From the NCBI GenBank assembly GCA_012813795.1, contig GCA_012813795.1_4087.1: 64,000 nt of DNA; one strand, written 5' to 3'. This stretch comes from a phage. The notes below the pieces were generated by a model. That model was not told where the DNA came from. It worked only from the letters and a program-made list of their open reading frames with translations, and did not search any database. Both the position numbers and the translations under genes were made by a program. Positions 37,982-39,108 of this stretch are shown one piece after another (the stretch's first letter is position 1; each line of letters starts with the position of its first letter).

Positions 37982-38716
37982 TTATGCGTATTTAGAAAGA
38001 TCAGGTTCGAAGAAATTCATACCTTTCAAACCTTTACCATCAACCTTACGTTTGATGACAAATACATCACCACTCTTCTCAACATATGCATCAGTGTAGT
38101 TTGCGATTTGTTCAGCTTTCTTGATTTCATCATATAGTGTTTCTGCTTCTGCTAATCGTGCTGCAATGCTTGCATGTGCCTCTTCTTCAGTTGTACAGAA
38201 CTTACTCATATTACTACGATGAACTTCATCAAATGCACCAGCCAAATCAAATTGGCTATCATTAGCAAAAACAACACACCAAGAAACTAGGCGAACTAAA
38301 CCATCACTAATTGTTTTACTGTCACCAGTTTCAACACCACGTTTGAACTGTTCAAAACAATCATTCATTGATTTAATCAATTTACCAGATTCATGCTTAT
38401 ACAACACCTTACTTGTACGACCTTCACCACCATTTGGTGTTACGAAGTAATCGGATAAAACATCGGTGCAGCCATAAGTTGCCATAGCACCGTAAGTTAC
38501 ATAAAGTATATCACATAGTGCATCAAGAATACCAACTTTATCATCAATATTCACTGAATCAACAAGTTCATTTCGTCCAAAAATTTCTTCGTGGATTAGA
38601 TTGACACGCAAATTTGCAACTTTGGCACTTTGAAAGGTGCGATGTTCGTTAACTTCCTGATTGCACACTTTCATAAACTCAATAACTTGTTTTGCTTGAA
38701 TAATTGGGGTACTCAT
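37982..38716 (-). CDS. putative all-alpha NTP pyrophosphohydrolase (MazG-like)
   Basis: [33 protein letters not shown] resembles the MazG/HisE EExxE...D metal-binding helices; ATG overlaps upstream stop as TAATG. Confidence 0.5.
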
Positions 38717-39108
38717 TACCATTCTCCGTAGTATGCGTCGCCATATTGCACTGCGACTTCTTGAATATTTGCAAATTCCATTTCTGTATTGGTCAACTCA
38801 CAAAGTAATTTGTTAATAAATTCGGTAATATGCTGTTGTGTTTCTTCATCAGTGGGGAGAGAGTCAAATTCATGTAACAGCATAAAACCTTTATCATGAC
38901 CACAAATACAGCAGCCACTATCATGTTCGTAGATGATATCCAAGCACTTATCAACTTGGGTTTGGTCAAGTTCGAATAAATGCACAGGAATAATCACAGA
39001 TGCTAAAGACACAGCATACCCTTCCAAATGCATTTTTTTAATATTACGATGACTGCGATATGTATATTTTGGAAAATTTTCTTTTACTTTTGAAAAGTTA
39101 TATTGCAT
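38716..39108 (-). CDS. hypothetical protein with HxE...CxxC signature (possible deaminase-like zinc site)
   Basis: MHLEGY then about 36 aa then CCICGH; AGAGGA SD. Confidence 0.5.

Follow-up and report, generated by a model that had tools for sequence, protein, structure and literature searches.

A stretch of phage DNA of 64,000 nucleotides (nt) (contig GCA_012813795.1_4087.1 of the GenBank assembly GCA_012813795.1), called the window below, carries two adjoining genes that encode proteins of 244 and 130 amino acids (aa). The initial annotation, made from the letters alone, placed both in a nucleotide-metabolism cluster, the first as a MazG-like pyrophosphohydrolase and the second as a possible deaminase-like zinc protein. 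Its observation is confirmed in part and its interpretation is supported in part: the MazG-like gene stands and the deaminase falls. Both open reading frames (ORFs) exist with the ends that it gave, and both lie on the minus strand, which it did not mention. By sequence comparison, the window is part of an Asteriusvirus-like (RaK2-like) Escherichia coli jumbo phage. A 2-kb query around the locus is 93.7% identical in DNA to Escherichia phage A4, an Asteriusvirus of 355.5 kb, and 72% identical to phage ELP-22, and RaK2-like Klebsiella phages match it more weakly. The features of the locus are as follows.

37982..38716, minus strand: gene of the 244-aa protein, a MazG-like (DR2231-like) all-alpha nucleoside triphosphate (NTP) pyrophosphohydrolase and candidate phage dUTPase
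38716..39108, minus strand: gene of the 130-aa protein, a divergent YggL/DUF469-like protein with an N-terminal YggL-type motif (residues 17-31)
38714..38718, minus strand: TAATG stop/start overlap, read directly from the sequence, predicted to couple the two genes
38724..38727, minus strand: GGAG, Shine-Dalgarno-like element of the MazG-like gene (sequence TACGGAGAATGGTAATG, 7 nt to the ATG at 38716)
39117..39121, minus strand: GAGGA, Shine-Dalgarno-like element of the 130-aa gene (sequence AAAGAGGATCATAAAGATG)
39123..39356, minus strand: 77-aa ORF directly upstream of the 130-aa gene in the co-directional block (phrog_16437, 1.3e-36)
39643..40767, minus strand: nrdB (ORF list, A4 annotation, Pfam families of the syntenic genes in the relatives L011 and L013)
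40814..43132, minus strand: nrdA (same evidence as nrdB)
35572..36126, downstream of the pair: DHFR gene (ORF list, A4 annotation)
37949..37975, no strand assigned: GC-rich hairpin of 9 base pairs, AAGGGAGCA-N9-TGCTCCCTT, with T-rich runs on both strands (sequence reading)

The TAATG junction pointed out in the initial annotation is real. The TAA stop of the 130-aa gene (38718..38716) and the ATG start of the 244-aa gene (38716..38714) have one base in common; on the coding strand the sequence of the junction is TACGGAGAATGGTAATGAGT. The identical 1-nt overlap is annotated in A4, ELP-22, CBB, phAPEC6 and a 358-kb metagenomic phage contig (L011). The GGAG element of the downstream gene lies within the conserved YGEW codons at the end of the upstream one, and the spacing disqualifies an alternative ATG at 38722, which is too near to the GGAG. 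Judged by these signals, translation of the two genes is coupled.

The class I ribonucleotide reductase genes nrdA and nrdB lie upstream on the same strand, where the initial annotation had located them, and DHFR lies further downstream. The order nrdA, nrdB, small ORFs, 130-aa gene, PRA-PH (244-aa) gene, two reverse-strand ORFs and DHFR was found in every relative examined, namely A4, ELP-22, CBB, RaK2, phAPEC6 and divergent metagenome contigs. This synteny extends to contigs whose YggL-like protein has about 26-38% identity to that of the window. In one relative the 130-aa and PRA-PH genes are separated by an extra ORF, and the ORF that follows the YggL-like gene on a short contig begins like the pyrophosphatase. 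The distant relatives L011 and L013 also have a 77-aa ORF at the position of 39123..39356; in the window, residues 1-45 of its product carry a charge of -7 and residues 46-77, a basic C-terminal tail, a charge of +14. The locus would form the distal end of a conserved early/middle block of nrdA, nrdB, two small ORFs and the 130-aa and 244-aa genes. The hairpin at 37949..37975 separates this block from three convergent plus-strand ORFs, and its sequence makes it a likely bidirectional terminator that ends the block. It was not reported by a consensus terminator scan because its loop has 9 nt. A promoter consensus scan of the locus found promoter-like sites to be no commoner than in shuffled sequence.

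Family and candidate substrate of the 244-aa protein

The 244-aa protein had been read as an all-alpha NTP pyrophosphatase of the MazG type on account of its acidic helices, and this reading is borne out by family profiles, by the match to DR2231 and by the predicted fold. Pfam assigns the protein to PRA-PH (PF01503) with 39.4 bits against a cut-off of 21.3 (E 8.5e-10), and PHROGs to phrog_671, "nucleotide pyrophosphohydrolase" (2.4e-30); a scan of NCBIfam gave no match. At E <= 0.001 a database search yielded 188 homologues, and PF01503 is carried by nearly all of the best 120 of them. Such relatives are annotated as nucleotide pyrophosphohydrolases, and the identity of the protein is to this extent already public.

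The acidic helices are present as HEEIFGRNE followed by LDALCDILY. In an alignment of 26 sequences, E44, E50, D65 and D69 are invariant and E43 is conserved in at least 90%; the motif EVHRSNMSK (residues 164-172) and two C-terminal lysines are invariant as well. This motif, the acidic residues and a C-terminal DGKxLK hairpin are common to DR2231 of Deinococcus radiodurans (COG4696), which an alignment profile of the family finds in the PDB at E 3.8e-12 over three aligned stretches. DR2231 has about 150 aa and forms its bundle as a homodimer, whereas the phage protein has 244 aa. The jumbo-phage proteins differ from it and from relatives of about 156 aa in two respects: three inserted residues change the EExxE spacing to EEx5E, and an additional insertion of roughly 70 residues carries a degenerate repeat of the catalytic helix. 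In the profile match, the corresponding DR2231 helix is aligned a second time, to the larger insertion. Within the phage protein itself, residues ~49-75 repeat as residues ~122-148 (P 2.7e-5 in a sub-alignment test, with 0.18 for the reversed control).

The structural model (predicted local distance difference test score, pLDDT, 93.2) is an all-alpha helical bundle. Its closest folds are three bona fide dimeric dUTPases, those of Campylobacter jejuni (1w2y), Leishmania major (2yay) and a staphylococcal phage (5myd), at 8-16% sequence identity. The predicted fold of the chain fits the protomer of a dimeric dUTPase; since the insertion holds a degenerate copy of the catalytic helix element, a single chain comes to resemble such a protomer. 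The viral models that match best are those of mimivirus PRA-PH-like proteins, of phage "DR2231-like NTP pyrophosphohydrolases" and of a mimivirus thymidine kinase fusion. The last is BFVD A0A481Z0N6 of Mimivirus LCMiAC01 (471 aa, annotated as thymidine kinase), a domain of which matches the phage pyrophosphatase structurally at E 7e-12; as modeled, it is possibly a fusion that ties a pyrophosphatase domain to thymidylate metabolism. MazG, HisE and the dimeric dUTPases constitute one superfamily (PMC5122711). On the sequence evidence, the 244-aa protein is an all-alpha, metal-dependent NTP pyrophosphohydrolase of the DR2231-like branch of this superfamily.

The initial annotation also offered "possibly a dCTPase/dUTPase", which was a reasonable guess at the substrate. 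By analogy, dUTP would be the substrate, and the 244-aa protein is the best candidate for the dUTPase of the phage. Its nearest solved relative by sequence, DR2231, cleaves dUTP (PMC5122711). The authors of the RaK2 study detected no homologue of a dUTPase or dCTPase/dUTPase in that phage. In the complete 355.5-kb genome of A4, the annotation lists no dUTPase, and tblastn with E. coli Dut reaches a best E of 9.9; the MazG-like gene is present there in a single copy. As A4 lacks a detectable trimeric dUTPase, the 244-aa enzyme becomes the best dUTPase candidate. Elsewhere the A4 annotation lists two CMP/dCMP deaminases, thymidylate synthase, thymidine kinase, a dNMP kinase, NrdAB, NrdDG and DHFR, along with two Nudix proteins and DNA methyltransferases. 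A phage that makes dUMP and dTMP on such a scale needs control of dUTP, which makes dUTP hydrolysis the most economical assignment. The enzyme would hydrolyse dUTP to dUMP and pyrophosphate, keeping uracil from the phage DNA, and the resulting dUMP would feed the thymidylate synthase/DHFR pathway of the phage. It would take the place of the trimeric dUTPase that is missing from the lineage.

Several observations weigh against this assignment. The Pfam scan at E <= 1 gave PRA-PH and MazG-like only, with no profile match to the dimeric-dUTPase family (dUTPase_2). DR2231 has been called promiscuous in a review, and promiscuity is frequent among MazG-family enzymes. A cyanophage MazG favours dGTP and dCTP (PMC6850273), a preference that fits an AT-rich phage in a GC-richer host. 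The enzyme could accordingly be something other than primarily a dUTPase: a shaper of the dGTP/dCTP pool, a general house-cleaner of non-canonical (d)NTPs, or a dCTPase like gp56 of T4. The window has a GC content of 34.9%, and trimming dGTP and dCTP derived from a GC-richer host would suit a genome of about 35% GC; this low GC content together with the cyanophage preference keeps a pool-shaping or house-cleaning role a live rival. Such a role is nevertheless rather unlikely, since it has to be set against the dUTP-cleaving DR2231 as the nearest solved relative, the three dimeric dUTPases as the nearest folds, and a lineage with no other dUTPase in which thymidylate synthase, DHFR and dCMP deaminases make or use dUMP.

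The T4-like variant deserves separate mention. T4 gp56 belongs to the all-alpha superfamily, and as a dCTPase/dUTPase it would occupy the same functional slot in a large lytic phage. It does not appear among the best 50 viral structure matches of the 244-aa protein. The hydroxymethylcytosine pathway, which is the reason for a dCTPase in T4, is not annotated in A4, and the dCMP hydroxymethylase pathway requiring such an enzyme was not found in RaK2 by its authors, who concluded that phages of this group do without hydroxymethylcytosine and glucosylation. The initial annotation had gone further and proposed, from the two genes together with NrdAB, DHFR and the methyltransferase, a strategy of dNTP pool and DNA modification that may differ from that of T4. 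Nothing is gained for this proposal from the genes themselves, and A4 has conventional deaminases, thymidylate synthase, thymidine kinase and methyltransferases elsewhere.

The 130-aa protein: a false deaminase and a likeness to YggL

The deaminase reading of 38716..39108 relied on a string reminiscent of the cytidine/dCMP deaminase (CDA) zinc site, H27-L-E29 followed after 36 residues by C66-C-I-C69-G-H. The string is present, with a spacing within the deaminase range, and the gene has nucleotide-metabolism genes as neighbours, but the string occurs at chance level and is not conserved. The loose pattern [HC]xE-x(24-40)-CxxC appears in 1.4% of shuffles of the protein and in 1 of the 82 window ORFs that have 100 aa or more, so that about one chance occurrence per window is expected. 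Across 10 close homologues, G, D, K or N stands in place of E29, and C66, C67, C69 and H71 vary freely. In the alignment of 31 family members no cysteine is conserved, and no proline precedes the cysteines. H27 is conserved, but it is part of a different motif, of the YggL type.

Profile and fold comparisons agree with these substitutions. No deaminase profile was matched in Pfam (with the single protein or the 31 members), NCBIfam, PHROGs or the PDB sequences, and the PDB sequence search with the protein and its profile gave only chance-level matches, e.g., COP9 subunit 7b and NAP1. The model of the 130-aa protein (pLDDT 81.5) is ferredoxin-like, with an N-terminal strand (residues 2-7), a basic segment of low confidence (13-27) and a beta-alpha-beta-beta-alpha-beta body; the alpha/beta/alpha fold of CDA is absent. 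The likeness to the CDA superfamily is confined to the literal HxE...CxxC string in the window sequence, whereas conservation, profile and predicted fold differ. The deaminase candidate is ruled out by the residue variation, the missing profile match and the ferredoxin-like model, and in A4 the genuine dCMP deaminases are encoded at other loci. A zinc-dependent cytidine/dCMP-deaminase-like enzyme that forms a module of dNTP-pool control or DNA modification with the pyrophosphatase retains scarcely any probability.

The conserved residues lie elsewhere in the 130-aa protein. Over the 31 members, P13, R18, S19, R21, K24, K25, H27, D57 and the C-terminal G-D-x-Y-Y-G-x-W are invariant or nearly so; R18, R21 and K24 are invariant, and S19, K25 and H27 are conserved in at least 90%. 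The N-terminal residues constitute the signature NRSxRLxKKxH[ILV]xx[FY] followed by a strand, which the family has in common with YggL/DUF469. Members of the phage family read NRSKRLRKKMHVDEF or NRSRRLRKKLHIGEF at this motif, E. coli YggL starts with MAKNRSRRLRKKMHIDEF and ends with LFDVWWD, and one homologue of the phage protein (P0011) is labelled YggL (DUF469) by JGI.

The relationship was quantified by profile comparison. The hhalign probability of the 31-member family is 96.7% against E. coli YggL and 97.1% (E 6e-11) against a 20-sequence YggL alignment whose Neff is only about 1.7, with 0.5% for the reversed-sequence control. A forced global alignment, in which GDAYYGEW falls opposite FDVW--WD, keeps 96.9% over 106 colinear columns. 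The Pfam family YggL_50S_bp (PF04320) is matched at E < 1 by 11 of the 31 members, two of which, P0139 (29.4 bits) and P0151 (30.6 bits), exceed its gathering score of 27 bits. Their N-terminal 31 residues alone score 14.5 and 13.0 bits, respectively, which leaves about half of the PF04320 score to the body. A match to NCBIfam PRK11702 lies far below its cut-off. YggL (PF04320, b2959 in E. coli) and the phage protein are also alike in the length after the motif, in the aromatic C-terminal end (DVWWD in YggL, DAYYGEW in the phage) and in the charge of basic tail and acidic body (+6/-17 in the phage protein, +7/-14 in YggL). YggL occurs in two classes, the gamma- and beta-proteobacteria; the hosts of all 70 phage records that carry the 130-aa family are gamma-proteobacteria, within its taxonomic range.

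Other results speak against the extension of this likeness to the whole protein. The significant hhalign signal is confined to 28 N-terminal columns. When the motif is removed from both alignments, P for the bodies is 0.25 and does not improve on the 0.12 of the reversed control, and the truncated bodies of P0139 and P0151 alone do not match PF04320; the globular part has no independently significant similarity to YggL. The window protein itself finds no match in Pfam even at E 10 and none in NCBIfam. A profile search of 1.84 billion representatives with an 11-sequence alignment returned 25 relatives, all of the phage family and no bona fide YggL among them. YggL has no solved structure in the PDB, and the phage protein differs from it by an additional strand, made by about 15 extra residues at the N-terminus. 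As the signal is lost with the motif, what has been demonstrated is a highly specific N-terminal motif together with a length, a charge distribution and a C-terminus that are compatible with YggL. That the whole protein shares an ancestor with YggL is likely on this evidence, and for the globular part we infer it.

Bacterial YggL co-sediments with 50S and 70S particles and binds purified ribosomes, and its deletion leads to more free 50S (PMC7498339); it is regarded as an assembly factor of the large subunit (PMC12274283). By analogy, the 130-aa protein would not be an enzyme of nucleotide metabolism. It would consist of a short extra N-terminal strand, a flexible basic segment with the YggL signature, an acidic beta-alpha-beta-beta-alpha-beta body and an aromatic C-terminus (GDAYYGEW), and through its basic tail it would bind the large subunit of the host ribosome, or the 70S ribosome, as bacterial YggL does. 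It would in this way join the translation genes of the phage. An IF3 gene lies ~6 kb away in the window, and the A4 genome also encodes a peptidyl-tRNA hydrolase and tRNAs. The following features of that region are taken from the A4 annotation.

32403..32990, minus strand: phage IF3 homologue
31843..32388, minus strand: protease-adapter gene, possibly ClpS-like

A different function is implied by public records. The 130-aa family is called "virion structural protein" in phrog_16130 and in many GenBank/RefSeq records of related phages, as are many neighbours in the replication region. The protein might on this account be a minor structural or packaged component of the virion whose basic motif binds nucleic acid inside the particle. 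Virion mass spectrometry of RaK2 did record the homologue gp143 (L005:5001-5384), a point against the ribosomal role, but by one peptide with 7.9% coverage and in a data set that also contained the single-stranded DNA-binding protein; the RaK2 authors flagged such detections as unexpected. The homologue CBB_308 (L004:5001-5381) carries the label and is yet not among the 55 proteins of the CBB virion mass-spectrometry table, and the 130-aa homologue gp175c of phAPEC6 (L006:1501-1896) is not among the 62 virion proteins of that phage. The single RaK2 peptide, taken with the absence from the two other proteomes, leaves the structural label weakly founded: it traces to that one peptide and was spread by homology. 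That the gene belongs to an early/middle block of metabolic genes and is coupled to that of an enzyme is a further argument against a particle component, which is an improbable identity for the protein.

Taken as a whole, the explanation that the end of the conserved block encodes a MazG-like dUTPase candidate and a YggL-like protein is considered reasonably probable. A search of the literature found no mention of YggL or DUF469 in phages, and a probable phage YggL-type protein is the one new item at this locus. A bolder form of the proposal is advanced only tentatively and falls short of probable: by analogy, RaK2-like jumbo phages that infect gamma-proteobacteria would carry the first viral counterpart of YggL, which would dock on the host 50S or 70S by its basic tail and help the phage to take over or tune ribosome assembly and use alongside the phage IF3, peptidyl-tRNA hydrolase and tRNAs.

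The pair, its neighbours and the meaning for RaK2-like phages

The coupling of the two genes raises the question of joint action. Their adjacency and overlap persist in relatives with identities of about 25-40%, the phage IF3 is nearby, and E. coli MazG has historically been tied to (p)ppGpp. The pair might hence act together at the ribosome, with the YggL-like protein docking on the 50S subunit and the MazG-like enzyme removing a ribosome-linked signal such as (p)ppGpp. The entire 10-kb block is syntenic, however, which means that the adjacency of the pair is no specific evidence for a joint function, and in one relative the additional ORF stands between the two genes. The cyanophage MazG leaves (p)ppGpp untouched, and the fold of the 244-aa protein points toward dUTPases. 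A joint role at the ribosome is highly improbable. Separately, in E. coli K-12 the start of yggL overlaps the stop of trmB, which encodes the tRNA m7G46 methyltransferase, by one base (L003:5808-6853); the style of coupling is that of the phage pair, with another partner.

Further observations concern the genes around the block. The plus-strand ORFs 37285..37701 and 37715..37945, in different frames, match positions 1-138 and 147-210 of the 218-position phrog_21209. The corresponding gene is undivided in RaK2 (ORF145w) and CBB (CBB_310) and split in the window, A4 and ELP-22; the two ORFs may represent a frameshifted or split gene. The adjacent plus-strand ORFs 36589..37269 and 37285..37701 match each other's PHROGs (phrog_14938, "membrane protein", and phrog_21209), a sequence relationship that suggests tandem paralogues. 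A Mom-like DNA-modification gene follows DHFR in RaK2 (L005:8467-9051) and in a metagenomic relative (L013:7507-8088); the window and A4 have no Mom-like gene after DHFR, and RNase H stands directly there.

For the biology of this phage group, the pyrophosphatase is routine as a family member, but its fold makes it a concrete candidate for the dUTPase whose absence from the group was noted by the RaK2 authors. The result on the 130-aa protein removes a false deaminase lead and shows that a widely propagated annotation as "virion structural protein" rests on one peptide. It also gives a family that is conserved in all RaK2-like jumbo phages a connection to YggL, a ribosome-binding protein that is still poorly understood. 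If the phage protein does bind the ribosome, it would be a new item among the translation factors of jumbo phages, and it would offer a divergent natural variant for the mapping of the contacts made by the YggL motif.

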